Positions 10,273 to 38,190 of a stretch of 64,000 nucleotides of DNA are shown piece after piece (position 1 is the stretch's first letter; every line of letters starts with the position of its first letter). This DNA comes from Liolophura sinensis. Lineage: Eukaryota. A program made the translations under genes and the position numbers. The stretch covers positions 32,082,510-32,146,509 of the forward strand of contig NC_088295.1 of NCBI RefSeq assembly GCF_032854445.1. Reading direction: 5' to 3'. The notes beneath the pieces were generated by a model, which was given only the letters and a program-made list of their open reading frames with translations, made no database searches and was not told where the DNA came from.

Positions 10273-10437
10273 ATGAAGATTGCAGCAGAAGAAATGATAC
10301 CCGAGATGCTCTCGGTATTTGAAGGTCTCAAAGTCGTATTTGAGCTAGACTCTAATGTTCGATATAAACAGAAGACTGCTCTCAAAGAACTCGTTATTAA
10401 AAATGGAGGTGTTGTGTCTTACATTCTTACCAAACAG
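10273..10437 (+). CDS. PARP4: PARP4-like exon 1 (start codon; BRCT N-terminal part)
   Basis: MKIAAEEMIPEMLSVFEGLKVVFELDSNVRYKQKTALKELVIKNGGVVSYILTKQ aligns to human PARP4 N-terminus (..IFANCIFCLKVKYLPQQQKKKLQTDIKENGGKFSFSLNPQ). Donor cag|gtgagg. An acceptor (tttcag) lies 11 nt upstream of the ATG, implying an upstream 5'UTR exon. Confidence 0.85.
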
Positions 10438-10796: not shown

Positions 10797-10987
10797 GTGC
10801 TCTTACCTGGTTGTCAGCAGTAAGGAGAAGGCCCAGTCTTACAGGTGTCAGACAGCCAGCAAGTATGGCGTCCCCTGTTGTCCTCGTGAACTTCCTGCAG
10901 GACTCTGTCAAAGCTGGAAAACTTCAAGACTTTCGAAAATATCTTGTCATAAAAGAGGACTTAAAGATTTCAGACGATAAAATCAAA
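10797..10987 (+). CDS. PARP4: PARP4-like exon 2 (BRCT), with an apparent +1 frameshift at the cccc run 10871-10874
   Basis: Frame A: CSYLVVSSKEKAQSYRCQTASKYGVP. After removing one C: VVLVNFLQDSVKAGKLQDFRKYLVIKEDLKISDDKIKG. Together these align to human CTHIILDNADVLSQYQLNSIQKNHVHIANPDFIWKSIREKRLLDVKNY. Acceptor ttgacag|, donor aaag|gtttga. Confidence 0.75.
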
Positions 10988-11670
10988 GGTTTGAATATAA
11001 ACCTTATGTCATCTTAGATTTGCAACATACAGTCAGTGTTCTGAAATTATCGCAGTTTTAGTCCTGTTTTAGTTGTAGTAAGGATTACTGTATGTGTAAA
11101 GAGGTAGGGCTTCAGAATCATCACTGATTGGCTGCTGTACAAGATAAGTTTAAATAGTTACTGTTGATTTATTTGATGTGCACTCAAGTGTGACCAATGT
11201 TACACAGTTTAACTGAGTCAACAGAACTCAGCCAGTCCCTGTCAGTCTTGTATCCTTCTAAAGAGAAATATATGTGATGACAGTTTAATCAGAACAGTTT
11301 TAAATATGTTTTTTCACCTTCTTCAACTTACATGCAGTAAAGTTTAATATCTCATATTCACCTTTTACACACACTGTCATTGTTGACACCCAGTGAGTGT
11401 TATGAAAACAATGCCCATACTTTGGTGACATGAACTATCATGCCACAAGAAGACATACTATATATACACACACCGAGTGACACCTCCTCATCACATAGTA
11501 TTGAAAAATTGTTAAGTATGATGTTAAACTCAAGTGTACTTGTATACATATTTTGTTATGTCAATGGAATATGCCAGTGTCTCCATATCAAGTATGACTT
11601 ACCATTCTGCAGACATACGTAAACATACATGTTAGATGATGTAGTACATTGCTCCAGTTCATTTTTTCAG

Positions 11671-11813
11671 AGTCTCCAAAAAGCCTGAGGATTCAGCGCC
11701 ATCAGGAAGAAGACATTTGTGATATCAGTTCCAAAGTGTGGGATCAGAATGACAAGAATAAACCACAGTTTGAGGAAGAATCGTTTGAATTGGCAAAGTG
11801 TGCAGTGTTTCAG
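11671..11813 (+). CDS. PARP4: PARP4-like exon 3
   Basis: (E)SPKSLRIQRHQEEDICDISSKVWDQNDKNKPQFEEESFELAKCAVFQ, compare human ...PQDFEVAKYNTLEKV. tttttcag| acceptor and cag|gtattg donor; phase consistent with exon 2. Confidence 0.7.
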
Positions 11814-12063: not shown

Positions 12064-12189
12064 GCCAAGCAGAACATAATATATGTGTTTGAAATCCATG
12101 CATCCAAAAAGCAAGAGGTGATAAGAGGTCAAGAGGTGACAAAGATTGATCATCCAAGATTCAGGCTGTTTTCTCAACAGTATTCACAG
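12064..12189 (+). CDS. PARP4: PARP4-like exon 4
   Basis: AKQNIIYVFEIHASKKQEVIRGQEVTKIDHPRFRLFSQQYSQ; ctcctcaaaag| acceptor, cacag|gtactt donor; phase 0-0. Confidence 0.6.
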
Positions 12190-12554
12190 GTACTTAATCT
12201 TTAAGTTTTCTTTGGAGTGCTTTGTATCGTATTTGGATGCACAAGAAGCAGACCTGAACAGACATTTATTGCACCTACACATACAACATGCCTGTGAAAC
12301 AGATGTGGTATTTTTGAGGTTTCAGTGAAAAAACAATGTGAACCAAAAATACATGTATTGTGGACTTTATCAAACCTTTATCAAACATTCAGACTACATG
12401 GACATATATGTATACTGTAGTCAATGTTTATTTGTACAAGACTACAACCAAATCCAAAATAACCAAGTTCTCACCCTCTTCTCCAGATCATGGGCATTTG
12501 TATGATTACCATGTTGCTTACCGTGCAGTCTCTTACTGTAGAGTTCCATTTATT

Positions 12555-14135
12555 ACTATGTAGGCTAACTTAAACGATAATGTATTACTACCACATCCAA
12601 TGGTTATCCTGCCATTTCCAGTTAGGGCTAAGGTAAACCATAATGCATTACTACCACATCCAATGGTATCCTGCCATTTCCAGTTAGGGCTAATGTAAAC
12701 AATAATGCATTACTACCACATCCAATGGTTATCCTGCCATTTCCAGTTAGGGCTAATGTAAACTATAATGAATTACTACCACATCCAAAGGTTATCCTGC
12801 CATTTCCAGTTAGGGCTAATGTAAACCATAATGCATTACTACCACATCCAATGGTTATTCAGCCATTTCCAGTTAGGGCTAATGTAAACCATAATGCATT
12901 ACTACCACATCCAGTGGTTATTCAGCCATTTCCAGTTAGGGCTAATGTAAACAATAATGCATTACTACCACATCCAATGGTTATCCTGCCATTTCCAGTT
13001 AGGGCTAATGCAAACCATAATGCATTACTATCACATCCAGTGGTTATCCTGCCATTTCCAGTTAGGGCTAATGTAAACAATAATGCATAACTACCACATC
13101 CAAAGGTTATCCTGCCATTTCCAGTTAGGGCTAATGTAAACAATAATGCATTACTACCAGATCCAAAGGTTATCCTGCCATTTCCAGTTAGGGCTAATGC
13201 AAACCATAATGCATTACTACCACATCCAAAGGTTATCCTGCCATTTCCAGTTAGGGCTAATGTAAACCATAATGCATTACTACCACATCCAATGGTTATC
13301 CTGCCATTTCCAGTTAGGGCTAATGTAAACAATAATGCATTACTACCACATCCAATGGTTATCCTGCCATTTCCAGTTAGGGCTAATGTAAACCATAATG
13401 CGTTACTACCACATCCAAAGGTTATCCTGCCATTTCCAGTTAGGGCTAATGTAAACCATAATGCGTTACTACCACATCCAAAGGTTATTCAGCCATTTCC
13501 AGTTAGGGCTAATGTAAACCATAATGCGTTACTACCACATCCAAAGGTTATTCAGCCATTTCCAGTTAGGGCTAATGTAATCTATAATGAATTACTACCA
13601 CATCCAATGGTTATCCTGCCATTTCCAGTTTCGGTTAATGTAAACCATAATGCATTACTACCACATCCAATGGTTATCCTGCCATTTCCAGTTAGGGCTA
13701 ATGTAAACCATGATGCATTACTACCACATCCAAAGGTTATCCTGCCATTTCCAGTTAGGGCTAATGTAAACCATAATGCATTACTACCACATCCAATGGT
13801 TATCCTGCCATTTCCAGTTAGGGCTAATGTAAACAATAATGCATTACTACCACATCCAATGGTTATCCTGCCATTTCCAGTTAGGGCTAATGTAAACCAT
13901 AATGCATTACTACCACATCCAATGGTTATCCTGCCATTTCCAGTTAGGGCTATTGTAAACCATAATGCATTACTACCACATCCAAAGGTTATCCTGCCAT
14001 TTCCAGTTAGGGCTAATGTAAACCATAATGCATTACTACCACATCCAGTGGTTATCCTGCCATTTTCAGTTAGGGCCAATGTAAACCATGATGCAGTACT
14101 ACCACATCCAATGGTTATCATGCCATTCAAATGAC
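12555..14135. repeat. Minisatellite, 60-bp unit x ~26, in PARP4 intron 4
   Basis: 'attactaccacatccaatggttatcctgccatttccagttagggctaatgtaaaccataatgc' reiterated. The 60-bp periodicity creates spurious long ORFs on both strands. Confidence 0.95.
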
Positions 14136-14260
14136 AAAATCTTTTAATTTGATGAGATGGTATAAACTGCTGCAAACTACACTTTCGGGTATATGAATTT
14201 TTTCATATACATATATAATAAAGAGAAATAAATCACGACAGGTTTTACCTTCATTTGCAG

Positions 14261-14425
14261 GGAAAGACACAGAATATTAAATACGTATTCAGTAATTCTG
14301 CTGATAAAATTGTGGAAGCATACACACAGCAGTGTGAAGAAGTGCAGAAGAAATATAATGCTGAGAGAGTACAGAACATTCAGCAGGTTCCCCTGGAAGC
14401 ATTGGGAACACGTCAGTTTAGAAAG
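14261..14425 (+). CDS. PARP4: PARP4-like exon 5
   Basis: GKTQNIKYVFSNSADKIVEAYTQQCEEVQKKYNAERVQNIQQVPLEALGTRQFRK, compare human RRQFAIKKTSEDASEYFENYIEELKKQGF...; tttgcag| and aag|gtagga. Confidence 0.7.
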
Positions 14426-15012
14426 GTAGGATCACGCCATAGACACCTGCAGTATACAAGTATGTACAGAGATAGCTGCATTATTCCTTATATGATTGAT
14501 GGTTTGATTGAGTTGTTTAATGGGTAGATTCCTTGAATAACAGGTTATGGTATTACATTGTCCATCATTAGTACATGTGTGCCCATGTGTGTAACCTTTT
14601 CAGCAGTTGCACTATACATGTATATACATAGAACCACTCTAATTAGAGTTTTAAACTGGACATATTTAGGCATGTGTAATTTGTTTACTGAAAATGAATC
14701 CTGATTGCAAAATCTTACGCCCCTTTTTTAGCACGTGGAATTTTCATGTTGTCAACACTGTATCTGCAGAACTCCTTCATGTGGAGTTTTTCATCTGGAT
14801 ATGCTTATGCACTGTCCATTGGCCCAGAAGCATAATGAAACTTGATTTGAGTGTGTGTCTTTGCTGATCATTGAAAGATCATACATAACATACCATAGTA
14901 CCGTAGTTCTTTCAGTTTGTCGAAAAATTTGGGTTCATTCGAGAAATACATTGTATTTGTTGATGTAGAAATGCGAGAAACATAACTGATCTGTAAATGG
15001 TTCTGTTTTCAG

Positions 15013-15150
15013 GTGTATCGAGAGAAAATGGTCACTGAAACCATCCCTGATCCTAGGGTGCTCACCCTTGTTAAGCAGGTGTGGGAGGAGGCTGTTGGAC
15101 ATCTGGGGCAAATCCTCACTGTACCTGTGGACAAGATTAAAATGGAACAG
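15013..15150 (+). CDS. PARP4: PARP4-like exon 6
   Basis: VYREKMVTETIPDPRVLTLVKQVWEEAVGHLGQILTVPVDKIKMEQ, compare human EVMNSSTLSQEVSDLVEMIWAEALGHLEHMLLKPVNRISLNDVSKAEG. Confidence 0.85.
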
Positions 15151-15344
15151 GTACATGCCTGAGTTAATTTGAAATGCTCTTTTTATACACCGTTATTTAC
15201 AGGTTTCAGTTTGGTTTGTCTGTTTGTCCATCTCTCCCTGTGAACAATGCATTTGCGGTCTGTTTGCTTCAGATCAGCTTATCCTTTTTAGTAGGCAGGC
15301 TTTGTGTAGGCAAGTGTGAATTAGGACTGAAAATAGGATTTTAT

Positions 15345-15775
15345 AATGCCTGGTCATACCGTTGCATGTACATGTAGTGATTTTGTATTGCCTGGTCATA
15401 CCGTTGCATGTACATGTAGTGATTTTTGTATTGCCTGGTCATACCGTTGCATGTACATGTAGTGATTTTGTATTGCCTGGTCATACCGTTGCATGTACAT
15501 GTAGTGATTTTTGTATTGCCTGGTCATACCGTTGCATGTACATGTAGTGATTTTTGTATTGCCTGGTCATACCGTTGCATGTACATGTAGTGATTTTGTA
15601 TTGCCTGGTCATACCGTTGCATGTACATGTAGTGATTTTGTATTGCCTGGTCATACCGTTGCATGTACATGTAGTGATTTTGTATTGCCTGGTCATACCG
15701 TTGCATGTACATGTAGTGATTTTTGTATTGCCTGGTCATACCGTTGCATGTACATGTAGTGATTTTGTATTTGGG
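15345..15775. repeat. Minisatellite, 42-43-bp unit x ~10, in intron 6
   Basis: 'ttgcctggtcataccgttgcatgtacatgtagtgattttgta' reiterated. Confidence 0.95.
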
Positions 15776-16615
15776 ATCATACTGAGATGAACTGGGTGAT
15801 ACAGGTTTTTTCAATCAAAGTTCTGATTTCCCGAGTAGTGGAGTAAAAGTCACAGTTAAGCTCCAATAAGGTGATCACAGTAGACGTCTTCATATTTGGT
15901 ATGTTCTTACATATTGAAGTGAACTACAGTGTAGGTTTTAATTTAATCTGGGGCATTTGCAATCAAATTCTGTTATAATGGAGTTGAAGAAGGTGCGTTC
16001 CAGTGATGTCATCCCTGAAATCAAACCAGTCCAGATTTTATCTCTGGTATGCAGGTTTATGTTGAACTGAACTAGGCTTCAATTTAAAACAAAGGTAAGA
16101 AAATAGCTGTGGAATATTTTTGAATCTAACTTCTGAGAAAGTGGCGAGTCAGTGTTTTAGCTAAAACTTTTGAAGCTGGTTTGATCAAATTTCAGCTGAT
16201 TATTAATAACTGAAACATTGTACTTAACAATTTTTCAGTCATATGACGACGAAGGAATCCTTAGAGTTCATGTAATGTGCTTCCTTGTTGCAGGATGGAT
16301 TTCCACCACTCTTTTATATACTGCTGCTTCACTGAAATGGCTTACCATTACCATTTCCAAGTAAGCCCCCCCTGCTGGAGCCATTATACTGATACGGGTT
16401 AACCAGTCATTGCACTATTCCCTTCTTGCTGCACGCCAAGCGAGGAAGTTACAACTTCCTCTTTTGATGTCTTATGTCTGACTCTACCCAGGATCAGGAT
16501 TGAAACAGACGCTCTATCATGAATAGTATTACGGAAATGAAGAAGTTCATACCCAGAAACCAACTGGTGGATATAGTTAGATTTATTAACTATGACTGTG
16601 TAAATCTACTGACAG

Positions 16616-16786
16616 GTGGAGAAGGCAGAAGGAGTGTTATTACAGATAAAGGAGGCACTTGAAGGTCAATCCAGTGCTAAGGATTTGGAGAACCTCAGTT
16701 CTCAATTTTATGAAGCCTTGGCGCATGTGAATCCAGTAACTATTACAAACAAGCTTATCCTGTGCAGGAAGAAAGACCTTTGTCAG
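16616..16786 (+). CDS. PARP4: PARP4-like exon 7
   Basis: VEKAEGVLLQIKEALEGQSSAKDLENLSSQFYEALAHVNPVTITNKLILCRKKDLCQ, compare human VSKAEGILLLVKAALKNGETAEQLQKMMTEFYRLIPHK...LLAKKADLCQ. Confidence 0.85.
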
Positions 16787-17081
16787 GTACGTGAACCATG
16801 CCTCTATATATATGTGAGCAGCTACCCTTTAAGGAACAAGCACGTACATTAAGGTATACACGTAGCTTAAATGTATTTAGTAATGTTATTAAGTGTATTT
16901 AGCTGTTTGCGTATCTTATTATTAAAATGTTTTCTTTTTCGTAAAAATTGTATTTTGTGCGGGAAGCGCAAGTAAATGTGTGGGATTATGCATGCATGCA
17001 ACATTACATTGAAATCATGTAAAATCAGCACAATGGCTTGAATGTTATGTAATTATGATACATGTTCCTTGTTATTTGTAG

Positions 17082-17242
17082 TTAATCCGGGACATGACAG
17101 CAGTAGGGGAGACAACCCACTGGCAGAGACATCCCTCAGAAGTAGCCACGTACAAAGCTCTACGTTGTTCTCTGGAATACATGAAGACAACTGATTTAGA
17201 CTTTGAAACTGTCTCCAGTTTAGTTAAGGACAGTCTCACAAG
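17082..17242 (+). CDS. PARP4: PARP4-like exon 8
   Basis: LIRDMTAVGETTHWQRHPSEVATYKALRCSLEYMKTTDLDFETVSSLVKDSLT, compare human LIRDMVNVCETNLSKPNPPSLAKYRALRCKIEHVEQNTEEF; ends phase 2. Confidence 0.85.
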
Positions 17243-18343
17243 GTAAGTCAGTTTTAAGGGTCGTGTGTCGAAAATTTGTATGTACATGTTTTTGATCTGG
17301 AATCAAGACATATGGTAAATGACCTAAAGTTTCGCCCTGGACTAGGAAAGTGTATCCCAGGATTCATTGCATTGGTTGTGGCTGTTAATGACTGAGCGCA
17401 GTGGGAGAACATCAGGGGTGGTCAGGGGATTATACTGACCGTACAAGAATGTAATAAACAAGTCCACGCTTCACTGAAGAGTTAGTCCATGTTCCTACCA
17501 CAAACATTTCATGTTTTCCTCAGCTTTAATCATAATAGTTTTAGTCCTCTGGCGACATGTTAATCACGTCTGGGGAACAACCATACACAGGAAATCATAA
17601 AAAATCTTGTTTATAAAGTTAGTGACGGTGTTGTGCCAACTCTAATGTGATAACTCAAACAAGTCCTGTCTCCTGATATGCCGGACTCGTACACAAGTGG
17701 TAAAAGTAAATCCTGGTAGTTTTCGAAAACCTTGCATGGAGTATGTTTTCTGTGTTTAATGGAGGTTCCCGATAAAAAAACACGGAAAAGGAACCTTTCT
17801 GCAATAGGATGACAATTCTGACTGTAAAGAAACAAAATGTGCGTGTAGACTGACATACGAAATTGGAATTACCTGGACACGAGAAGCTGCTAGTCAAGAA
17901 ACCTGCAAAACTTACTGTCAGTGACTTGACCCCATATAGTGAGGATTAGCAACCACAGCTGCTAAAAAGTGCCATTCAGAGGGTGAGGGATCTCTTCTCT
18001 CATTTTGCCGCTATCTCAGATTGTGCGGAAATAAACAACATTAACTCACGTGTGAAACTTCGTTTACTGTAGATGTTTTGTGTTATAAGGAGGGGCATGT
18101 CATATGATGCAGTTCAGCATGTGACATGTTGGAATACAGCCATGTCTTTGAGATGGATCTTTTTGGAATACTGTTCAAAGTGTATCCTTTTTTTTTGTCT
18201 TGTTTGTAAGACAAAAGCACTACATGTCTTGGAGAGGACTTGTATTCCACCAATGTGACTTGCATATCTGTTCCTCACACATGAGAAAGTTTAATTGTCA
18301 GTGACTTTCCGAGGGTTTATACCCCAGTTACATTGGTTTATTT

Positions 18344-18599
18344 ATTAGATTGGTGTTTTCCGCCCTACTCGAGGATATTTCACGTATACGATGGCGGCCA
18401 GCATTATGGTGGGAGGAAACCAGGCAGAACCCGGAGGAAACGCACAGTCATCTGTAGATTGCTGGCACACCTTCCCACTTACAAGCAAAGAGGAAACCAG
18501 CATGAGCTGGACTTGAACTCACAGCAACCATGTTGCTGAGAGGCAAGCTGCCCTTTAACCTGCCCTAACGTGCTAACCAACTGAGCTACGTAGGCCCCC
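18344..18599 (-). mobile_element. tRNA-derived SINE, full-length copy in intron 8
   Basis: Reverse complement begins 'gggggcctacgtagctcagttggttagcacgttagggcagg' (A-box tagctcagttgg) and contains B-box 'gagttcaagtcc', core 'cctcccaccataatgctggccgccatcgtatacgtgaaatatcctcgagtagg' and tail 'aacaccaatctaataaataaa'. Confidence 0.8.
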
Positions 18600-18856
18600 T
18601 GCATTGGCATACTCCACGTATAAAACACACTACCATTGTAAAAGTTAAACCTGTTCGAATGTGGAATTGGACAGTGATAAAAAAAAAATAAATGTATGAA
18701 CAATGAAATGTCACGCATAATGTCTGAGACAAATGGAAATAGAAAACCATACCATACTGCATCTTATTTGTGACTTTATCTGCTAGGTTAGGATAATACT
18801 TCTTCCTATTTTTTCACAACCAACCTAATGGCCCTGATGTCTTCCTTCTCCTTCAG

Positions 18857-18994
18857 ACAAGACAGAATGGAAATCGTAAATATCTTCACAGTCCAGCGAC
18901 CAATGGAAGAAGAGATGTTCAGACATGACCTATCCCCCAAGAAACTGCTCTTTCATGCCTCCAGCTTCTCACGTTTTCTTGGAATACTCTCAAG
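18857..18994 (+). CDS. PARP4: PARP4-like exon 9 (PARP catalytic domain, His of H-Y-E)
   Basis: (R)QDRMEIVNIFTVQRPMEEEMFRHDLSPKKLLFHASSFSRFLGILS, compare human VDVLQIFRVGRVNETTEFLSKLGNVRPLLHGSPVQNIVGILCRG. Confidence 0.85.
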
Positions 18995-19736
18995 GTGAAA
19001 ATAATTTTGTTCATTTAGTACTTTTTTCAACACTCTCTTGCGGATCTTTATGAGAACAATCTTGGTCCACTACAAGAAAATGAATAAATGATACATTGTT
19101 TGAACCTCAAAAGTCCTGACCATTCCATGGGTTGCTATTTAAACAGTTTATTAACACGTGTAACCCTAAACGACCTAATATTTCGCCCACAAAACTGCAT
19201 TTTTAGAGGCAAATAAATGTCACAAATTATTATTTTTAGTGCCGAAACTTACAATTTTCCAGTAGAATATTATCCCATGTCCCAAGCAGACCTCAAAGCA
19301 ATAGAACTCTCAGAATCTGGAAAAAATGGGCAAGTTAGTCATGGATGGAATTTACGGTCATTTTATGGTATGTAGTGAAAGAAAAGTGGCCTGTCCATAC
19401 ACTTATGAAGCATTCCAGTTCACCAACACTGAAAAGGGCTGATTTATTTGTACATTAAAAGTAATTTAAGAATGAGTACTGTATTGTATGGCATATATAT
19501 TATAAGTGGCATTTCACAATAAGCTTCATTACAATACATGCCGGCTGTTTTCAGTTATACGTTAAAAAATGTGAAAGAATTAGGTTGATTAATTTTTTTA
19601 CTTATAAGTTTCTGTTTTTCTTCAGTATATTTAAACCGTCATTGTTGATTATCTTCATAATTGTGCAGTAGTTCTGTGTTAAAGTGAACAAAACAACCAT
19701 CCCCACTAAGCATGAATGCATTTGATCCTGTTGCAG

Positions 19737-19835
19737 AGGTCTTCTGTTGCCCAAGCTTGTGGTGAATGAGTATGGGGGAAGTAGGTCGGACCCTGGTAAC
19801 CTGGGTTATGGCATTTACTTTGCTGAATCAGCCAG
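19737..19835 (+). CDS. PARP4: PARP4-like exon 10 (catalytic Tyr)
   Basis: (R)GLLLPKLVVNEYGGSRSDPGNLGYGIYFAESA, compare human GLLLPKVVEDRGVQRTDVGNLGSGIYFSDSLS. Confidence 0.9.
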
Positions 19836-20266
19836 GTATGTGTAATGAAAGTTTCAGAAACCAATCAGAAAGTGCCAGAATATTTTGATCCAGATAATGG
19901 TAATGACACTATCCCATGTTTCCCATTAGAGTTCAATCATTTTTTAATCAAAAAATCTACTCCCCTTATTGTTTTCTTTTTAAATTACATGAAGGGAAAT
20001 TATATGGTTGAAGTGTTACTAGATTCTGTTCATTTGAATAATGAAGACGGAGACAATAGATTTCTTACATATGTTTGTATATTCTCAGCTAGGTCCTCTC
20101 CTATATCTAAACCAAAAAAGTTGTGGACACCTATTGATTTCATTTACTTCTCAATTAAATATACTTTACAGAGAATTACTGCTACATGTTTAAGCTGTTT
20201 GGGTAGAAGTTTTCCATGAACTGTGAGGCTTGTTTTAGCATCTTCACATCTCTACCTCCATTTCAG

Positions 20267-20450
20267 CGTGAGCTGTGCATACTCTGGAGTGAGTCAGTCT
20301 CGTGGGACTCGCTTCATGCTGATAACAGAGGTGGCCCTGGGAGAGAGTTGCAAGTTCTACACTCAGCAACCTGATCTCACTGCGCCACCCCCGGGCTATG
20401 ATAGTGTACATGGGGTAGCTCACTCACCTCAACAACCCTCCTTCTTCAAG
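20267..20450 (+). CDS. PARP4: PARP4-like exon 11
   Basis: VSCAYSGVSQSRGTRFMLITEVALGESCKFYTQQPDLTAPPPGYDSVHGVAHSPQQPSFFK, compare human YSHPGETDGTRLLLICDVALGKCMDLHEKDFSLTEAPPGYDSVHGVSQ. Confidence 0.9.
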
Positions 20451-20714
20451 GTACGGACCGACATTTACAGATATACATGTACATGCACTTTTGTTTAAGC
20501 ATCCATTCGCTTCAGTCATGTCTATATTACATGTAGGTGTCCTCAGCCTGTTACTGTTTATTTCATTTGAATGAGTGTAGGGTAATATAGACTTGTTGTG
20601 GAGTGTGGGGTTAGGGTGGGTCGGAGTATCGCAGCTATTGCAAATTTGCACTTGTTTGGTATGGGGTCTATAAGCCACAATTAGAAGAATATCTCGTTTA
20701 CTTTTCTTTTCCAG

Positions 20715-20874
20715 AATGATGAATTTGCCATATATCAGAGTAACCAACAGAAGCTGAGGTACCTGATCGAGTTCACTTTACCTGGGGACAAGCCACTGCC
20801 TGCACCACTACAGCTCACCAGAAGTGTGAAATCACCAGACTTTGAGCACCTGGATTTCTCTGACATCATGGCAG
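20715..20874 (+). CDS. PARP4: PARP4-like exon 12 (catalytic Glu)
   Basis: NDEFAIYQSNQQKLRYLIEFTLPGDKPLPAPLQLTRSVKSPDFEHLDFSDIMA, compare human DDEFVVYKTNQVKMKYIIKFSMPGDQ. Confidence 0.85.
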
Positions 20875-21454
20875 GTATGGGGTAATGTTCCATCAGCTCA
20901 CCCATCCATCATGTTTGCCATCATGCAAATATAAGGATTTTCTGCCTCTACGGTAGTTATTGAATGAACTTTTTGAAAAGCAGATATTTTGTATTCGTAT
21001 GGCATTTTGTTATTTCACTTAGGCCACACCAATTAAAATTTTTGTTTTGACAAGCTGAATAAATCTTCTCTCTATGTCGGAGGGTATGAAAATAAAACTG
21101 AAAAACCACCTACACTGTAGCTCATCACATTTGTGGTAACTGTGAACTGTCCCAACATATTTATGTGATCCGAAAGCCTAGGAAAACTATAAAATCACAA
21201 AAAACATTAAAGATTGTACAGAATAAAAAGTTGGGTTTTCAATTTTATTTTTATTTCGTTTTTGGATTTTCTGTTGTTGGCTTGCCTGTGAAACATAAAA
21301 TAAAATTGGTGTAGCCTGAACTCTAAGGAGGGACACACCAAAAGTGTCATGGAATTATTGAGCCACAGACTAGGGAAAACTGGATTTATTTTCATTCAGT
21401 ATAAAATTTCATATGTAATAAATGTATACCTAAATGTATTATAAAATTGTGGTG

Positions 21455-21655
21455 GTGGGGAGTGAGAGTCTCTCACCAATGCAGTCAATGTGAGTTCAAG
21501 TCCACTGTATGCTGGATTCTTCTTTGGCTTTATGTGGGAAGGTTTGCCAGCAACCTGCAAATGGTCGTGGATTTCCTCTGGGCTTGGTCATATAAGTGAA
21601 ATATTTTTAAGTACAGCATAAAACACCAATCAAAGAATTAAAATAAATACTATAA
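21455..21655 (+). mobile_element. SINE copy (5'-truncated) in intron 12
   Basis: 'ctcaccaatgcagtcaatgtgagttcaagtcc...' followed by tail 'gtgaaatatttttaagtacagcataaaacaccaatcaaagaat'. Confidence 0.6.
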
Positions 21656-21926
21656 GATGGTTTTGGAGAACTAGGAAAAGGTATGATACTGAAAGTTTTG
21701 CACTAAAAAATGGTTCCATATGATCATGAGTGATGGAGAGTGATGTGGGCTGTGTCTAAGGATTGGGGATCTCTTCCTCATAGTGGTCTTTTAAGCATTC
21801 ACGTTTTGAAAGAAATATTTTGATGGTTATTTAAAGAAGTGGATTAAGCTGAAATAAAAAAAAAATGGAAAACATGTTTGTAGTAGATTTTTAAAGTTGT
21901 TTGGGATTGTGCATGAATTGCTTTCA

Positions 21927-22057
21927 GATGTGACACGTGTCCAGAGTAAGGAAGACCCATTGAGTAAAGTGACCAGTGGACTAGTGAGTTCTGGGGATTC
22001 GTCTGTCCCCCTCAAATCGGTCCATATCAGGGCACGTCTCCTCGACATGGCTGCTCA
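21927..22057 (+). CDS. PARP4: PARP4-like exon 13
   Basis: (D)VTRVQSKEDPLSKVTSGLVSSGDSSVPLKSVHIRARLLDMAAQ, compare human GNLVPLEDVHIKGRIIDTVAQ. Confidence 0.8.
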
Positions 22058-22084
22058 GGTACATGTAATGCTGATTTGTCTCAT

Positions 22085-22790
22085 CATGTTTGTACAATGT
22101 AGGATTGTGGTGCTGTAAAGGAATTTGGTTTGCTCAGTTTATACTGATCAGGCTAGTATGATTGTGGCGCTGTAAAGGAATTTGGTTTGCTCAGTTTATA
22201 CCAATCAGGCTAGTGGGATTGTGGCACTGTAAAGGAATTTGGTTTGCTCAGTTTATACTGATCAGGCTAGTGGGATTGTGGTGCTGTAAAGGAATTTGGT
22301 TTGCTCAGTTTATACCGATCAGGCTACTGGGATTGTGGCGCTGTAAAGGAATTTGGTTTGCTCAGTTTATACTGATCAGGCTAGTAGGGTTGTGGCGCTG
22401 TAAAGGAATTTGGTTTGCTCAGTTTATACCGATCAGGCTAGTAGGGTTGTGGCGCTGTAAAGGAATTTGGTTTGCTCAGTTTATACTGATCAGGCTAGTG
22501 GGATTGTGGCGCTGTAAAGGAATTTGGTTTGCTCAGTTTATACCGATCAGGCTAGTGGGGTTGTGGCACTGTAAAGGAATTTGGTTTGCTCAGTTTATAC
22601 TGATCAGGCTAGTATGATTGTGGCGCTGTAAAGGAATTTGGTTTGCTCAGTTTATACTGATCAGGCTAGTAGGGTTGTGGCACTGTAAAGGAATTTGGTT
22701 TGCTCAGTTTATACCGATCAGGCTAGTATGATTGTGGCGCTGTAAAGGAATTTGGTTTGCTCAGTTTATACCAATCAGGCTAGGATTGTG
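22085..22790. repeat. Minisatellite, 58-bp unit x ~12, in intron 13
   Basis: 'ggattgtggcgctgtaaaggaatttggtttgctcagtttataccgatcaggctagtgg' reiterated. Confidence 0.95.
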
Positions 22791-23124
22791 GTGCTAAGGT
22801 TTGACATGTTTGTACTGCTAGTAGAATTGTACTGCTAATGTAGACTTGCTCATTTTGTTATGTACTGTAAACTTAACTTGGTATACAACAAGTAAGCAAT
22901 AAATTTCCCATTCCCATAAGTTTTTGTCCCATTTTAACCATTGTCAACAAAATTATGACTGTTTTTGTCTTGTGGTCGTTTTTGACATACTATACATATT
23001 TAATATTCTGATGGCTGAAACTGGCAAGGGACATGTATTGCCAAAAAACTTAGTTTAACAACAAAGTGTAACACCTTTTAATTAAGACACCTGTGTACAT
23101 ATATACTGTGATTATTAAACACAG

Positions 23125-23349
23125 GTGGTTGTTCTACAAGAGTACAGTAATGACCTGAACACAGCCATCGAGGCCAAGTATGTGTTTCCACTGGATGACC
23201 TGGCTGCTGTCTGCGGGTTTGAGGCCTTCATTAACGGTAAACACATTGTGGGGGAGGTGAAGGAGAAGGCTACAGCCCACAGGGAGTATAAGGAGGCTGT
23301 TAGTGCTGGTCATGGGGCATACTTAATGGACCAGGATGAAGAGACACCT
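23125..23349 (+). CDS. PARP4: PARP4-like exon 14 (VIT domain start)
   Basis: VVVLQEYSNDLNTAIEAKYVFPLDDLAAVCGFEAFINGKHIVGEVKEKATAHREYKEAVSAGHGAYLMDQDEETP, compare human VIVFQTYTNKSHVPIEAKYIFPLDDKAAVCGFEAFINGKHIVGEIKEKEEAQQEYLEAVTQGHGAYLMSQDAP. Confidence 0.95.
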
Positions 23350-23994
23350 GTGAGTTGAATTTAAGGCATGGTATCACATTCCTGAGGCTAAACCACTTTT
23401 GAAATGAAGTCCATGTTTGCCAGTTAGACACACCTAACAAAATCGTGTCTAGAGAAACTCAATTTAGGTGTGTGCTGATCAAATTCCTGGTCTTTTGTAA
23501 GGGATGTGATCACCACAAAAACAAAGATGACAGCCTGAATTTAATCCACAACTGTTTGGCTGGTAAATTCTTTTAATTTGAGGAAATTTGAGTTAATTGT
23601 TTTACATGTTTCAACCATATTGACATCATTTGAATGTGAGTGAATTATTTTTGTGTACAGTACATGTATCTTACATCCATAAGATATACGCAGTTGTTAA
23701 TAAATAAATAACGCAATGAAATAAATAAACATTGATTAAATGAATAAGGAATAAAAATAAACTCCAGTCAAACAAACAAATATTTTATTAGGAGATAAAT
23801 AATAGGTTATCTATTATTATCTTTTTTAAAGGTTGGTGGTTCACCCCACAGACTCAGGTCTCCACCAGCCATAAAAACTGACTACCATCACCTAAGTGAA
23901 ATATTCTTGAATAAAGCATTAAGAAACAGTCAGATATATGAATCATTAATTGTAGTAGTGGAAGGTGAATCTGATGTCTGTGCTTGTTGTCCAG

Positions 23995-24159
23995 GATGTG
24001 TTCACAGTTAGTGTTGGGAATCTGCCCCCAAAGGCCAGTGTTCTTATCAAGATCACCTATGTGGCAGAGCTGCTGACAGAGGAGGGACTGATCAGCTTCA
24101 GTCTTCCTGGTAGTGTGGCGCCATGGAAACGAGACTCCGCCCTTGACCAGACTACACAG
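23995..24159 (+). CDS. PARP4: PARP4-like exon 15 (VIT)
   Basis: DVFTVSVGNLPPKASVLIKITYVAELLTEEGLISFSLPGSVAPWKRDSALDQTTQ, compare human DVFTVSVGNLPPKAKVLIKITYITELSILGTVGVFFMPATVAPWQQDKAL. Confidence 0.95.
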
Positions 24160-24776
24160 GTGAGGACGAAAACTTACTGACCAGGATCCGTGTCTCTAAA
24201 CTACAGTAAATGAATTGTAATTTCGTGAAAGTTTTCACCCTGCTGTGGGAGCTGTAGTACATAAGAGTGATTAGTTGGTGAGCAGTCATATGACTTAAGC
24301 TAATAATGAATTTATTTTTGAATTTTAATACTCCTAATCACCCAATGTTTTATGTGATTTTCTAGTTGGTAAAGCTTCTTTAAAATAGTAGATGATTTAC
24401 TGTACATATACGTTAAACGTGCATGATGTGCCTAAATATAGCTCATCATACAAATCAGATACAAGTTGAGTGATAAAATCATGGGGAGTAATAGGTCTAT
24501 TCGTGTTGTTACATTGCATGAAATACAACAGTGGGGTCTGTGATTCAGGATTGGTCACTTCACCATGCTTGTGTTATTAACTAAATCCTCACCCTATTGG
24601 ACCTCTAAAGCACTTTTCCCCATGGAATTTATGCCTACATTAATATTAAAATAGCCTTTAAATGAAAATGTATTCATGTTGAAACATTGTAGCTCGACAC
24701 TGTTGACATATTATGTCAGATGTACATACATGTACACATCTGAAAATTATGTTTTTGTGATCTTGGCTTTTTTCAG

Positions 24777-24899
24777 ACAGCTGTGGATACACTGAAGGTG
24801 GACTCTAACATTGGTCAGAACACCAGTCTCCAGATCTCCGTGAACATGCCCTTTGACATCAGGTTTATCGAGTCACCCACGCACAGGCTGAAGAAAAAG
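24777..24899 (+). CDS. PARP4: PARP4-like exon 16 (VIT)
   Basis: TAVDTLKVDSNIGQNTSLQISVNMPFDIRFIESPTHRLKKK, compare human DTVEKICIKEIGTKQSFSLTMSIEMPYVIEFIFSDTHELKQK. Confidence 0.85.
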
Positions 24900-25079
24900 G
24901 TATGTAGGTAGATATGTGCATATATGTACTACATTGTACATATTCAGGGAGTGATGGCCACTAAGTTTGTGTTTTGAACAGAGATTACTCTGCTCAAATA
25001 GTTTTATGGAAAAGCATTATTTTAAAGCTTTTATGTACTTATGAAAGTTTTTACAGGCAAAAGTTTTGGTGAAATACAG

Positions 25080-25253
25080 TATGTAAGCTATGATTTTTGG
25101 TCTGATTTACTACAGACTACAGCCTCCAGAGCAGTACTGGAGTTAGAGAAGAACCAAACACTTGAGGGTGGTTTTCAGCTCCTGATTGGCCTGTCAGAGA
25201 TTCATGTACCACGGATGTGGGTTGAGGAACACCCGGACAATGAGGACAGTCAG
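25080..25253 (+). CDS. PARP4: PARP4-like exon 17 (VIT end)
   Basis: YVSYDFWSDLLQTTASRAVLELEKNQTLEGGFQLLIGLSEIHVPRMWVEEHPDNEDSQ, compare human ...SSGFSLHIGLSAAYLPRMWVEKHPEKESE. The acceptor atacag| at 25079 was chosen because the stronger tttacag| at 25056 gives a stop in phase 0. Confidence 0.75.
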
Positions 25254-25282
25254 GTAATCATAGTTGTCTCCCCCTTCCTGTG

Positions 25283-25625
25283 ATGACCAGGCCAGATTGA
25301 CCCTGTACTGATGTTCATAAAGTCAAGTGGACCTGAGTTGGAGCTGTTCCTTTTTGCAGAAGAATTGTTGCAAGTGTTCAAGTTACTTTCATGGTACCAT
25401 TGGAACAAGGCATCCTTATGTAATATATTTAAAATAAAATTTCATCCATAACTCACTTACTCTTTTTTCCTGATTCTGAGAGTTCTGTGGGTCTTGAAAA
25501 GGTTCTTTCACGTTTCATTGCAAGGTAAGATGATATCCATCTGGAAAGATGTTACCAAAAGTAATATTTTATTTGTTTATTTATTTCATAAATGGCAAAA
25601 AGTTATATCCTCCACACATCACACA
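25283..25625 (+). repeat. Dispersed repeat family B (~330 bp) in intron 17
   Basis: Near-identical copy at 35925-36250 and a partial copy at 57290-57430 (tggaacaaggcatcct.atgtaat.tattt.a.ataaaatttcatccat.act.acttact..ttttcctgattctgagagttct.tgg.tcttgaaaaggt...gatgatat.ca.ctggaaa.atgttaccaaaagta.tattttatttatttattt). Confidence 0.7.
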
Positions 25626-25758
25626 TACATGTCTGTATGTACTTATTTCCTTATTTTTTTCTTTTAGTACAGTCATCATATCATCATCAGGATATAATGT
25701 TACCATATTTCATAATGTTTGATTATCTTGATATTTACTGTATTTTTCTCGATTTCAG

Positions 25759-25945
25759 GCATGCATGCTAACATTTTACCCAGAGATTGATAGTGGAAAG
25801 TCAGGAGCATCCAAGACTGTCTTCCTTCTTGACATGTCTAACTCCATGAAAGAGAAAGCTGCTAAAGACGCTGTGACTCTGCTTGTCATGTTGCTCAACC
25901 AGCTCAACAAAAATACTCACTTCAATGTGATTGTCTTTGGAACTG
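25759..25945 (+). CDS. PARP4: PARP4-like exon 18 (vWA domain, MIDAS D.S.S)
   Basis: ACMLTFYPEIDSGKSGASKTVFLLDMSNSMKEKAAKDAVTLLVMLLNQLNKNTHFNVIVFGT(G), compare human ACMLVFQPDLDVDLPDLASESEVIICLDCSSSMEGVTFLQAKQIALHALSLVGEKQKVNIIQFGTG. Confidence 0.9.
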
Positions 25946-26836
25946 GTAAAAAAAAAATTTTTCCACTTAATAGCTCTTTATTTTGACTGACATTTCATAA
26001 ACACTGTATTATGATTTAGACTGTTTTGAAACCTGACCATTGCAGTAAGAGAACATATGTGATGTATAAAGGAAAGAGTTACTATACATTAGGCCATCAG
26101 TGAATTTAGTTGGTGGTACATTCCAGAGTTTCTTCTGTGCTGTGCTGTGCTGGTGTTTAAATGTGCATCTAATATTTTGAAACCAGCCAAGAAGATTGCA
26201 TGTTATGAGATAACTAACTTATAGGATGCTTTTGTAATATACATAATTAATATAGTTCATACTGGAATGATGCCCTTCAGGCAAACTATATATACTGCTG
26301 ACAGCTTGGGTAATTCCAGTAAAAATATAAGTTTTTTTGATGTGACTATGTAACAATCGTTGATATGATCTTTTGTCTGCCCATTCCCCTCCCCTTGCTT
26401 TACAAATGCCCCTGTCTGGGTTGTGTACATCATTGTCTTCCGATGTAACCCAATCTGGCTTGTGGGGAAGATATGTGAAAACTAATTAAGTAGGACTGTT
26501 TAAGAAGACCCACGCTTTGTTATATCACTTTTGTTATGATCTAATTAACTTTTGAAAAATATTACTGTATTTGTATATATTTTCTTAAATATACAGAAAT
26601 TCTTCATAACTTGTTCCTTGTACACATGTGTTAACAATTTTTATCATCCATGTGGTGACTGTATAAAGACTGTATATTGGTGGGGGGGGGGGCATATATG
26701 ATGATTTGTAAACACCTGGCACACAATCTAGTATTTTATTTATAGTGGTGTGTCAGTAGATTAATTTGTAAATTTGGAATTTAGTAAATTAAAGGCTTGA
26801 TGTTTCGTTACTGAGCAGTGTGGTTTTTGTCTTTAG

Positions 26837-26910
26837 ACTCAGAAGAGGTGTTCAGTGACTATCAACCAGTTACCAAAACCAGCATACAGGCTGTACTCAA
26901 ATTTCTCAAG
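26837..26910 (+). CDS. PARP4: PARP4-like exon 19 (vWA)
   Basis: (D)SEEVFSDYQPVTKTSIQAVLKFLK, compare human YKELFSYPKHITSNTMAAEFIMSA; phase closes the carry from exon 18. Confidence 0.7.
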
Positions 26911-27329
26911 GTTTGTATATAAAAAACTAAATGGAAAAGCTTTGAAGGAAAAGGGTAACACAGGGTCATATACAAGAAGATTTTGATACCTTTCACTGGT
27001 GGCCAAATTACAGCATATCCTAACAAGGCAAAAATTGTGGAGAATATTGTCCGATAATTTTTTAAAAAATTCCTTATATTCATAGAAACTGACTGTAGAA
27101 AGATTTATCGGTAACATCAAAACTTTAATTTGGTATAGGACATTAAGTTAAGGTTTTTGATGGTCTGGAAATAGTTTCACCCAAACTAGCCTACTAAAAG
27201 GGTGTCCAAAGGAAAAATCTGTATTTAGCACGGTAGCACATCGCATCATGAAAGAATTTACTATCAAAATAATTTATACTATCTCCCTATGCTGGTATGT
27301 CTTATTCTTTTTTGCTCTCCATTACACAG

Positions 27330-27520
27330 GAGAAGGTAACCAAAACTATGGGAGGAACAAACTTATATCACCCCCTCCATACCCTCCTGCTTCTTCAACC
27401 AACAAGTACCCCCCTCAATGTCCTCTTGATATCAGATGGCCATATCAACAATGAGGAGGTGATATTGTCTGATCTGATGATTAACTCTACTTCCCTTAGG
27501 CTCTTCACTGTCGGAGTCAG
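27330..27520 (+). CDS. PARP4: PARP4-like exon 20 (vWA)
   Basis: EKVTKTMGGTNLYHPLHTLLLLQPTSTPLNVLLISDGHINNEEVILSDLMINSTSLRLFTVGV, compare human TPTMGNTDFWKTLRYLSLLYPARGSRNILLVSDGHLQDESLTLQLVKRSRPHTRLFACGIG. Confidence 0.9.
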
Positions 27521-27976
27521 GTTTGTACATTTAGTAGTGAAAAATGTAGAGATTATTTCAGTTTGTTAGTTTGCTCAAAAATACCATTGTATACATGTGA
27601 ATGAATGATAAATACAGGAACGCTATTCATGCCATCTCAGGATGATCACTAAAGCACACCACAGTACATCAGTACAAAGTCATGGCATATGGGCCTGTAA
27701 TGTGTCTCGGTCATTGATAAGCAAACTTTAGGCATGATATACCAGGCCTATAAAGTTGATGACATTGCTCAGGTTGACCAAACATAATAACCTTTTTCTT
27801 TTTGTAGAATATCTCTGTACTTGTTTTTTTAAAGTATGTGTATGTAAGTCCATAGTGACCCAGTATATGAAACTAGTAAGGATTTCAGTTAAAATTGTAT
27901 GTGTGGATTTGAAAATGTTGTGCATGTTGTATTTTACAAGAATACAGGGGTGATTAATTCTGTTGTTTTCCACCAG

Positions 27977-28076
27977 TGATTCAGCTAACAGGCACAGATT
28001 AAGGTCTCTGGCAAGAATTGGAAGTGGCTGCTTTGAATTCTTCGACAGCAAATTGAAGTCTAAGTGGGGTGCAAAG
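27977..28076 (+). CDS. PARP4: PARP4-like exon 21 (vWA end)
   Basis: (S)DSANRHRLRSLARIGSGCFEFFDSKLKSKWGAK, compare human STANRHVLRILSQCGAGVFEYFNAKSKHSWRK. Confidence 0.9.
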
Positions 28077-28214
28077 GTGTGTAAAAGTTGTGTCAAAGTT
28101 GAAGCATATTTATATTGTCAGACATCTGATTTTTCAGGTTTCTCTTGGTACTAAAAGCATGAAGCAAAACTGTCATAAAAAAATCTCATAATTTGCTATA
28201 CCTTTGATTTATAG

Positions 28215-28385
28215 GTGAAGTCTGTATTGTACAGAGTGTCACAGCCCAGCCTCACCTCAGTGCATGTGGAGTGGCACCAGTATGATAACAACCCCCAACC
28301 TCCCATCCAGGCTCCCCGACAAATCATGTCTCTCTTCACGGGAACACGGCAGGTTGTCTACGGATTTGTCTCAAATTGCCAAATG
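28215..28385 (+). CDS. PARP4: PARP4-like exon 22
   Basis: VKSVLYRVSQPSLTSVHVEWHQYDNNPQPPIQAPRQIMSLFTGTRQVVYGFVSNCQM, compare human QIEDQMTRLCSPSCHSVSVKWQQLNPDAPEALQAPAQVPSLFRNDRLLVYGFIPHCTQ. Confidence 0.85.
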
Positions 28386-28574
28386 GTAAATGAAGCAAAT
28401 TTATCGTCAGTGCACACACAACTGATCCTGTGTGAAATGTCATGTACATGTATTTTAGATTTGTGCTGGGACAGGCATTGAAGAAAGGGTTAAAACATCC
28501 TCCGTCTCACCACAATCATCCTCCCTCTTCCAATAAGCATGTGTGAAGTTTGCTCCCACTAGGGTTTAAATCAG

Positions 28575-28797
28575 GGGGTGTGTGAGGAACTCCACCAATG
28601 CAGTCGCTGTGAGTTCAAGTCCAGACGCTGGCTTCCTCTCCGGCCATACGTGGGAAGGTCAGGCAGCAACCATGGTCGTGGGTTTCCCGCGGGCTCTTCC
28701 CGGTTTCCTCCCACCATAATGCTGGCCACCGTCGTATAAGTCAAATATTCTTGAGTACGGTGTCAAATACCAGTCAAATAAATAAATAAATAAATCT
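28575..28797 (+). mobile_element. SINE copy in intron 22, followed at 28798-28888 by the tail of a second copy
   Basis: 'ccaatgcagtcgctgtgagttcaagtccag...cctcccaccataatgctggccaccgtcgtataagtcaaatattcttgagtacggtgtcaaataccagtcaaataaataaataaataaatc', then 'caaagtgaaacactcttgagtacagtgttgaacagcaatcaaataagtaaag'. Confidence 0.75.
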
Positions 28798-29224
28798 GAG
28801 TTACTCCAGCTGGTCTTTGCTGTTTCATACACTTGCAAAGTGAAACACTCTTGAGTACAGTGTTGAACAGCAATCAAATAAGTAAAGAAGTACTTTTAAA
28901 TGCGTGCAGGCATAACTTAATCATTTAGCTGTTTGTTATAGTGTATTAAACATCATGCTGCATGTGTATGTTGATTAAAGAATGATTCAGTGGAAGTCAT
29001 ATCGTACAGTAGAATATTGGATCCTGACTTGATTAATATTACATCGGTTAATGATATGATCATATGTATGCTGCCATGTAGTGAAATTTTGACTCATGAT
29101 GCGTGATATTTTTGGTATAAACCATGACTGATTATTATTTGTGTTCTTGTATTTTGTCCAAAAATGGATGTTTTACATTCTGCATGTATTACAAAGGTTG
29201 ATATTTCTGATAATTGTTGTCCAG

Positions 29225-29305
29225 GCCACTTTGAAGGCTGTGGTGAACGGGGCAGAGATATCCACAGTGGTGTCATCCTCTCAACTCAGTAACACCAAAG
29301 GCACT
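29225..29305 (+). CDS. PARP4: PARP4-like exon 23
   Basis: ATLKAVVNGAEISTVVSSSQLSNTKGT, compare human ATLCALIQEKEFCTMVSTTELQKTTGT; donor act|gtgagt. Confidence 0.8.
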
Positions 29306-30135
29306 GTGAGTATCTGTATACTGTGAATAGTTAAATCAAAGGCACTGAGATCATCTGTATATTGTGAATAGTTAAATCAAAGGCACTGAGATCATCTGTA
29401 TATTGTGAATAGTTAAATCAAAGGCACTGAGATCATCTGTATATTGTGAATAGTTAAATTAAAGGCACTGAGAGCATCTTTACATTGTTAATAGTTAAAT
29501 TAAAGGCACTGTGAGCATCTGTACATTGTCAAAAGTTACACCAGAGGCACTGTGAGTATCTGTATACTGTGACTAGTAACACCAACGGCACTGAGTACAT
29601 CTGTATACTGTGAATAGTTAAATCAAAGGCACTGAGATCATCTGTATACTGTGAATAGCTAGACCAAAGGCACTGAGATCATCTTTTGTGAATAGTTAAA
29701 TTAAAGGCACTGAGAGCATCTTTACATTGTTAATAGTTAAATTAAAGGCACTGCGAGCATCTGTACATTTTCAAAAGTTACACCAGAGGCACTGTGAGTA
29801 TCTGTATACTGTGACTAGTAATCCTAAAGGCGCTGTTAGTATCTGTATACTGTGACTAGTAATCCTAAAGGCGCTGTTAGTATCTGTATACTGTGAGTAG
29901 CTACACCAATGGCACTGTTGGTATCTGTATACTGTGAAGAGCAACACCAAAGGCACTGTGAGTATCTTTATACTGTGAATAGTTGCACCAAAGGCACTGT
30001 TAGTATCTGTACACTGTGAAGAGCAACACCAAAGGCACTGTTGGTATCTATATACTGTGACTAGTAACACCAAAGGCACTGTTAGTATCTGTATACTGTG
30101 AAGAGCAACACCAAAGGCACTGTGAGTATCTGTAT
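29291..30135. repeat. Minisatellite, 41-bp unit x ~20, seeded from the exon-23 3' end plus 5' splice site
   Basis: The unit 'aaaggcactg(t)gag(t/a)atc(a)tctgtata(t/c)tgtgaatagttaaatc' starts inside exon 23. Several copies retain 'ggcactgtgagtatctg', which is the exon end plus GTGAGT donor. Confidence 0.9.
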
Positions 30136-30139
30136 TATG

Positions 30140-34850: not shown

Positions 34851-35195
34851 CAGAAAGCTTTGTTGCCATTATCCTGAACATATTTCATTTTGTATCCACC
34901 CAAAAATACATAAAGAACTTGGAATAATCAAGTGAAGGTGTTATTGATAGGCTAAAAGAAAGTTAGAAATAATAAGTAACTATTTTTTAAATAAATATGA
35001 AATATTATGTTCTTAAATGCACTGAGATTCTGGAAACAGGGTTTCACCATTATTGCTTTAAAATTTTGATATCGTGGGAGTATTAAAGCAGTTATTATAT
35101 TCTATTTTGTGCAGAAAGGGAATGAAATTAATGAAAGGGTAACAGCCATATGCTTTATATAAAATTAATGACACATTTGTTGACTGTTGTTTCAG

Positions 35196-35276
35196 ATTGT
35201 TCACAAATTGACAGCCCGTGGTATTATTCGAGATTGGGAAGATGGCGTCTTGTCATTGGACAGAAACAAGCATGAG
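35196..35276 (+). CDS. PARP4: PARP4-like exon 24
   Basis: IVHKLTARGIIRDWEDGVLSLDRNKHE, compare human MIHKLAARALIRDYEDGILHENETSHE. Confidence 0.85.
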
Positions 35277-35924
35277 GTTGGCACTTTGTCTGTTTTTTTC
35301 TGTTTGCACCACTATTATTTTATGTTAATAATATGCATTAAGCAACTTTAGGGCAGTTGAATAATCAGCAGGTCTTATGTTCAAGACTTCAGGGGATCAT
35401 TTACAGTATACAGTTGATACAAGTGTTGTCCATGATTGATCATGTGCTCTAGTATGAAAAATTCGGTCTAATTCTACCTAACAAGTGACTTAGAATCACC
35501 AAAGCGAAGTTGCATTGTACTGATCCTGGGATTAGATATTGGCATTTGTGACATAAAGCAAACAATCGCGCTTGTGAGGTCATTTTATCAGTCTGACATT
35601 CTTTGAAGAATTGTCAAAGAATTTGTCTCTTCCTCCAATTTTTGTGTATCTATTTGTATGTCAGCATGGGAAAATGTGACCAAATGTCAGGGGTTTTAAA
35701 CCCAGAGTGCACCTCTTTCCTCCACCTATATACCTGACCATACTTTAGTATGTGGTGGATCTCATTATAAAACAATACAAGTTTATTGTCACTCAGCTCA
35801 CTGGCTTCTTTCGAAGTCGGAAGACTGGGATCAAACTTGGGTCAGATTATACTTGGCACTTGTTGTCACGTAGCTTGGCGCTCAAGAGCTGAACGTTTAA
35901 AGCAAGTAAACAGGAATGGTCGGC

Positions 35925-36250: not shown

Positions 36251-36346
36251 TGTAATGAGGATGTCTGATGTGTTCGGCATGACAATTCAGTGGTGGCAGT
36301 ATATGTACATACACCTTATGACTGCCCTCTTTGTCTTGTGTTGTAG

Positions 36347-38091: not shown

Positions 38092-38190
38092 GATGAGGCC
38101 AAAAGTGTGACGTCAGATGCTCAAATGGAGGAGCTTATTCAGGCAGAAGATGTGGATGATCTGTCCTACATAGGGTGGGAAAGATCTCCG
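38092..38190 (+). CDS. PARP4: PARP4-like exon 26
   Basis: DEAKSVTSDAQMEELIQAEDVDDLSYIGWERSP, compare human SPFPDIPKVSELIAKEDVDFLPYMSWQGEPQ. Confidence 0.75.

Follow-up and report, generated by a model that had tools for sequence, protein, structure and literature searches.

PARP4, also known as vPARP, vault poly(ADP-ribose) polymerase or ARTD4, is conserved from sponges and cnidarians through vertebrates, and in mammals its C-terminal third binds the major vault protein. Invertebrate PARP4 proteins, for example those of Mytilus edulis (CAG2205451.1), Magallana gigas (K1PUC2), Branchiostoma lanceolatum (CAH1248284.1) and Lottia gigantea (XP_009055955.1), share their domain order with the gene described here and are colinear with it over 1,190 residues, but overall identity is only 42-47% and our gene, as assembled, has a surplus base in exon 2. 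Gene models that are tagged LOW QUALITY PROTEIN by RefSeq, such as the PARP4-like protein XP_061177422.1 from Saccostrea echinata, are comparable in that a single frame-breaking indel interrupts an otherwise intact conserved gene, and as in those models homology fixes the position and the sign of the correction in our sequence; we do not claim that the site itself is shared. Genes decoded by programmed +1 frameshifting (antizyme OAZ, bacterial prfB, and Ty1, EST3 and ABP140 from yeast) are alike in that a +1 shift is required and that P-site re-pairing from CCC to CCU is possible, but the site analysed here differs from them in having no conserved shift, no A-site stop or hungry codon and no downstream stimulatory structure.

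With orthologues supplying the anchors, and GT..AG pairs chosen for compatible phase, we modelled a PARP4-like gene on the + strand of the 64-kb stretch of DNA under analysis (hereafter the window), which is AT-rich (GC ~0.39) and in which the gene runs from ~10.3 kb to past 38 kb. The model comprises 25 exons (10273 to 37775) separated by 24 introns of 138-5,890 nt, all of them GT-AG with good consensus flanks, and once a single C is removed its 1,201 codons contain no stop. Exon 1 (10273..10437) opens with the start ATG, closes with ...VSYILTKQ, supplies the first BRCT half (MKIAAEEMIPEMLSVFEGLKVVFELDSNVRYKQKTALKELVIKNGGVVSYILTKQ) and exits in phase 0 (CAG/gtgagg; here and below a slash marks the splice site); it is supported by tblastn with the N-termini of Mytilus, oyster and amphioxus, and the intron between exons 1 and 2 occupies the same position in bird and scallop genes. 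Exon 3 (11671..11813, acceptor cattttttcag/AG), which contains the conserved FE(L/V)AK motif, must be entered in phase 1 (G/AG TCT CCA AAA, encoding ESPK). Exons 4-26 (12064..38211) are intact, with GT-AG introns and consistent phases, and encode the PARP_reg, PARP catalytic, VIT and VWA domains. Exon 26 (38092-38211) lies beyond the 25-exon model, and there is another conserved piece at 40729-40806. On the 3' side of exon 26 we found weak matches only, namely to 40729-40806 and to a proline-rich open frame at 61673-62956; the C-terminal region is poorly conserved, and the gene may extend beyond the end of the window. The proline-rich frame (+ strand, 427 aa, with the repeats SPPPPPPSRF and SKSGSVPPPP) has a weak match to a sea-urchin PARP4-like protein and could be a low-complexity C-terminal PARP4 exon, in which case the gene would exceed 52 kb. 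Rfam and tRNA scans of the whole window found nothing.

In the corrected protein the domains follow the order BRCT, PARP_reg, PARP, VIT and VWA, with Pfam scores of 32.7 bits for the helical regulatory region PARP_reg (PF02877), 101.7 bits for PARP (PF00644, profile positions 3-197 of 199), 127.4 bits for VIT (1-111 of 111), and 73.6 and 42.7 bits for VWA_3 and VWA, respectively. The motifs carrying the catalytic H, Y and E residues (LLFHASS, GIYFAES and NDEFAIY) are present and align with LLHGSS, GIYFSDS and DDEFVVY of the orthologues. Residues 13-1202 of the model align to residues ~1-1,200 of full-length PARP4 from freshwater mussel, oysters, Mytilus, amphioxus, Biomphalaria, crinoid, sea urchin, Nematostella, Hydra and sponge at 41-47% identity, and they align in the same way to PARP4 of a fish. 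The closest relatives are molluscs, amphioxus and crinoid (42-47%). A fish origin, to which the AT-rich composition and the PARP4 matches had pointed, was rejected since molluscs, amphioxus, echinoderms and cnidarians match best and fish score lower; the organism is an invertebrate. Identity to the Lottia fragment is 52%, and identity to the orthologues over the N-terminal 400 residues is 30-36%, the best match in a HMMER scan of 1.84 billion representatives reaching 36%. The PARP4-like assignment in the initial annotation thus holds on domain order, full-length colinearity and best matches, which are all PARP4, and we take the predicted protein to identify the gene as a PARP4 (vault PARP) orthologue. 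It adds to the sampling of this family a lineage without a relative above ~50% identity in current protein collections.

The reading frame is broken in exon 2 (10798..10988, + strand; acceptor ttgttgacag/TGC, donor AAAG/gtttga), which encodes the second half of the BRCT domain and is 191 nt long as assembled, compared to the 3n+1 (190 nt) required by the gene structure. Homology is confined to frame 0 from 10798 to 10875 (CSYLVV...KYGVP; CSYLVVSSKEKAQSYRCQTASKYGVP) and to frame +1 from 10877 to 10988. Read from the C run, the latter frame gives VVLVNFLQDSVKAGKL..., and from the GTT at 10877 it gives VVLVNFLQDSVKAGKLQDFRKYLVIKEDLKISDDKIK followed by a leftover G at 10988, which completes the first codon of exon 3 (the E of ESP). 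Frame 0 fails to supply phase 1; after CSYLVVSSKEKAQSYRCQTASKYGVP it continues into unrelated sequence (CCPRELPAGLCQSWKTSRLSKISCHKRGLKDFRR) and encounters a TAA stop at 10978-10980, the 116th codon from the ATG, with at least 24 exon junctions downstream of it, where translation of a literal mRNA would terminate after 115 codons. The surplus base falls within 10872-10876 (CCCCT), in or adjoining the proline codon of the conserved KYG-V-P-V-V motif, and deleting any single base of this interval yields GTC CCY GTT, that is V P V. The local four-C words are GGCGTCCCCTGTTGTCC and CAAGTATGGCGTCCCCTGTTGTCCTCGTGAA, and their three-C counterparts are GGCGTCCCTGTTGTCC and CAAGTATGGCGTCCCTGTTGTCCTCGTGAA. 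The initial annotation had correctly seen a run of four Cs but had placed it at 10871-10874, which reads TCCC; the run occupies 10872-10875. These data show that the assembled exon 2 carries exactly one base too many (CCCC for CCC, or CCCCT for CCCC or CCCT), and the frame break is an ordinary one-base lesion rather than a new biological mechanism.

Profile searches across the break gave the same answer. With the exon as read, Pfam BRCT_2 scored 19.0 bits (profile 2-55 of 86), and with one base removed it scored 38.9 bits (2-85 of 86) and Pfam BRCT scored 31.5 bits. In a profile HMM built from 15 orthologous N-termini, with the window sequence left out, the corrected peptide scored 106.7 bits compared to 81.3 bits as read, and the upstream part by itself scored 80.8 bits. 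When the downstream peptide was shuffled 200 times, the mean was 81.6 bits (sd 2.2, maximum 90.1); the correction gains 25 bits, more than 11 sd over the shuffles. The motif KYG[VL]PV[VIL] spans the break without a gap in 13/13 aligned orthologues (for example KYGVPVVTSDFVTKSVEAGFLL in Hydra and KYGLPVISPDFIHDSVEKQKLL in Solemya, compared to KYGVP/VVLVNFLQDSVKAGKLQ in the window, where the slash marks the break), indicating that one base is surplus rather than two bases lost. Pfam, the orthologue HMM and the alignment therefore bear out the original observation that both halves of exon 2 are BRCT-like in different frames, and removal of one C restores both the domain and the phase-1 exit that exon 3 needs.

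Genomic exons from two other species are unbroken at the site and do not have the extra base. The homologous exon of the tinamou Crypturellus soui starts with the same Cys codon in phase 0 (ttttag/TGT ACA CAT), runs uninterrupted for 196 nt and exits in phase 1 (TGT G/gtaagt), and the site reads CTC CCT GTA GTA. In the scallop Pecten maximus the exon is 205 nt long and likewise uninterrupted, with phase 0 at its entry and phase 1 at its exit (ACT G/gtaaat), and the site reads GTG CCT GTG TTG. The introns bordering the BRCT exon agree between these two PARP4 genes and ours in position and phase, and our site, GTC CCC T GTT GTC, corresponds to the bird and scallop pattern NTN CCT GTN plus one C.

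If the four-C sequence were correct, full-length protein could be made by a lineage-specific +1 slip, programmed or tolerated, in a metazoan PARP gene: the proline tRNA would slip from CCC to CCU at CCC-U, yielding ...KYGVP-VVLVNF.... CCC-N sequences are known +1-prone sites in bacteria and yeast whose proline tRNA is undermodified, and such a slip of the P-site tRNA on C-CCC-U would give exactly the conserved protein. The shift is not conserved, however, since the tinamou and scallop exons and all 13 orthologous proteins are single-frame; the A-site codon in frame 0, UGU, is a sense codon and not a rare one, as it supplies 7 of the 14 Cys codons of the modelled gene; and the 113 nt downstream fold at -19.2 kcal/mol, indistinguishable from the shuffle mean of -19.27 (z = 0.02). 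To our knowledge there is no case of programmed frameshifting in PARP4, and we regard +1 slippage at this site, whether programmed or tolerated, as extremely improbable. Transcriptional slippage was rejected since a run of four Cs is far shorter than those known to cause it.

To see whether splicing could rescue the frame, we enumerated every internal GT/GC..AG removal in exon 2 together with its other possible acceptors and donors. An internal AG at 10899-10900, downstream of the surplus base, opens an exon at 10901 (TCCTCGTGAACTTCCTGCAG/GAC) that joins exon 1 in frame to exon 3 and lacks 34 BRCT residues, and a second in-frame AG at ~10855-10856 (exon start given as 10856) likewise connects the phase-0 exit of exon 1 with the phase-1 entry of exon 3. 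The claim in the initial annotation that no alternative acceptor rescues the frame is thus over-stated, both junctions being stop-free from exon 1 through exon 3. The domain is not rescued along with the frame: the two acceptors delete 19-34 core BRCT residues, and the BRCT core is lost. In an acceptor matrix derived from the 25 acceptors of this gene, the 10901 site scores 6.8, compared to 3.0 for the exon-2 acceptor, and ranks in the 96th percentile among all AGs between 10 and 40 kb. A real insertion that is bypassed by splicing exon 1 to 10901 or 10856, giving a PARP4 without most of the second BRCT half, would be consistent with these scores, but the matrix comes from 25 sites only, the 10901 site lies 103 nt inside a conserved exon that lacks an AG at that place in both bird and scallop, and the product would lack 34 conserved BRCT residues; we therefore consider such a bypass unlikely. 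Micro-introns within exon 2 were rejected: a stop-free exit in phase 1 results from 63 GT/GC..AG combinations, but every one of them costs 13-157 nt of conserved BRCT sequence, their donors are poor, and in length they fall far short of the real introns (138-5,890 nt). We also rejected an ATG at 10865-10867, which lies in the +1 frame just 5' of the C run (MASPVVLVNF..., with A at -3 and G at +4), as a start for the downstream frame, as its product would be missing the N-terminal 78 residues and several ATGs lie upstream; this ATG is most likely incidental, arising from the codons AAG TAT GGC.

The initial annotation had offered two alternatives, an assembly error or a real disabling mutation, and these are the correct ones to weigh. 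We consider it most likely, at a probability of roughly one half, that the surplus base is an error in the consensus sequence. A short C run would have been over-called by one base in a long-read assembly, and the real gene would have three Cs and make a normal PARP4 with BRCT, PARP, VIT and VWA domains. The window is gap-free and its minisatellite arrays, over 20 kb in sum, are fully resolved, implying a long-read assembly, and the residual errors of such assemblies are typically one-base indels in homopolymers. The LOW QUALITY PROTEIN tag on the PARP4-like model of another mollusc (Saccostrea echinata, above) indicates that corrections of this kind are routine in this family. On the other hand, ~7.6 kb of minisatellite copies are in perfect register without a net indel, which suggests good consensus quality locally and sets an upper limit of ~4e-4 per base on indel errors, whose true rate may be far lower; this limit is too loose to choose between error and variant. 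Consensus errors usually concentrate in longer homopolymers of 5-6 nt, but 0/14 coding homopolymers of that length are frameshifted and only this C run, four bases instead of three, is affected.

Only somewhat less probable is a true germline insertion of one base, by which the reference haplotype would carry a loss-of-function allele of PARP4 that is young, probably segregating and perhaps heterozygous. The given sequence does have four Cs, local accuracy looks high from the tandem copies in register and the unshifted longer coding homopolymers, and natural small insertions arise most often by duplication of one base of a short run. The transcript of such an allele, with its premature stop in the second of 26 or more exons, would probably undergo nonsense-mediated decay or else encode a fragment of 115 residues. 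The single lesion in 3.6 kb of coding sequence is compatible with an error or with a very young lesion: at an estimated ~0.15-0.2 disabling changes per neutral substitution, a second lesion is expected after ~0.15% neutral divergence, and the insertion, if real, must be very young. The lack of a second lesion fits such a recent event, and it led us to reject an old (fixed) pseudogene, given also that 24/24 introns are GT-AG and that the 1,201 codons are free of stops after the fix. In this respect the initial annotation, which called the gene otherwise intact, was accurate, as 25 exons and 24 GT-AG introns contain no second stop or frameshift. Mice are described as tolerating the loss of PARP4 (Liu et al., 2004, as cited in PMC9404506), the deficient animals having no obvious developmental defect (PMC9404506), so nulls can persist and a true null is not far-fetched, particularly in an invertebrate with high polymorphism. 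Against a null allele, vertebrates share this gene with sponges and cnidarians, it is intact here save for one base, and there is no sign of relaxed constraint anywhere in the window; for most long-read assemblies, moreover, an error is likelier than a variant where a conserved gene shows a lone homopolymer indel.

We searched for an independent copy of the locus, from the same species or a close relative, and found none in two word-indexed protein searches, which returned nothing above 76% local identity and no match to the N-terminal query. An exact-sequence look-up of twelve open frames of the window, the ones across the site among them, returned no match, and neither a DNA pattern that allowed three or four Cs nor a peptide-based scan had a match in metagenome contigs. 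In annotation, the locus is best treated as a PARP4 orthologue in which one base is corrected at 10872-10876, and it should not be split into two genes, nor termed a pseudogene without read support. Should the extra C be real, the individual carries a null allele of vault PARP, or an allele without BRCT if an internal acceptor is used; a null allele would match the mild phenotype of PARP4 loss in mice and would be unsurprising.

Tandem repeats account for more than 20 kb of the 64-kb window, in ~20 gap-free arrays with periods of 35-255 bp and mostly 0-1% indels, and two of them include exon sequence of the PARP4 gene. A 41-bp minisatellite of ~130 copies (29294-30135 and 30179-34828) makes up nearly all of intron 23 (5.9 kb); it starts within exon 23, and its unit consists of the end of that exon plus the donor (ACCAAAGGCACT/GTGAGC), so that intron 23 contains more than 100 donor-like copies. 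The strong GC skew at 30-34 kb is due to this array. Similarly, the unit of a 95-bp array with 15 copies (36321-37775) consists of the 3' splice site and the first ~69 nt of exon 25 (TTGTGTTGTAG/GCTGATAGACTGGAGCTGAAGGAG...); the last copy is the real exon 25 (37674-37775), preceded by 14 decoy acceptors, and since 95 is not divisible by 3 the copies lie in rotating frames. Intron 4 harbors a 63-bp minisatellite with 25 copies (12563-14127) that is free of stops on both strands, and the resulting open frames of 347 aa (+) and 197 aa (-) are almost certainly non-coding. At the end of exon 18 (25940-25965), an A10 T5 run follows the donor (ACTG/GTAAAAAAAAAATTTTT), and read-through past this exon looks like coding sequence (GTGKKKIFP) and leads tblastn astray; the next true exon lies at 26843-26910. 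Farther downstream, three copies of a segment (~43920-44345, 47516-48082 and 50966-51544) are spaced ~3.5 kb apart, bordered by 126-bp and 55-bp arrays, and have in common an open frame with an acidic, Ser-rich stretch (...GNSSSSSEDEDYAPIPDIYSEGDILHYMF...); they may be duplicated C-terminal exons of PARP4 or a repeat element.

Outside the window, the ENA metagenome scaffold ERZ28563591 (32 kb) contains an intronless PARP4-like gene encoding BRCT, PARP and VIT domains (792 aa), followed by a separate VWA gene. This scaffold presumably derives from a protist or a fungus-like eukaryote in which the PARP4 architecture is split over two adjacent genes.
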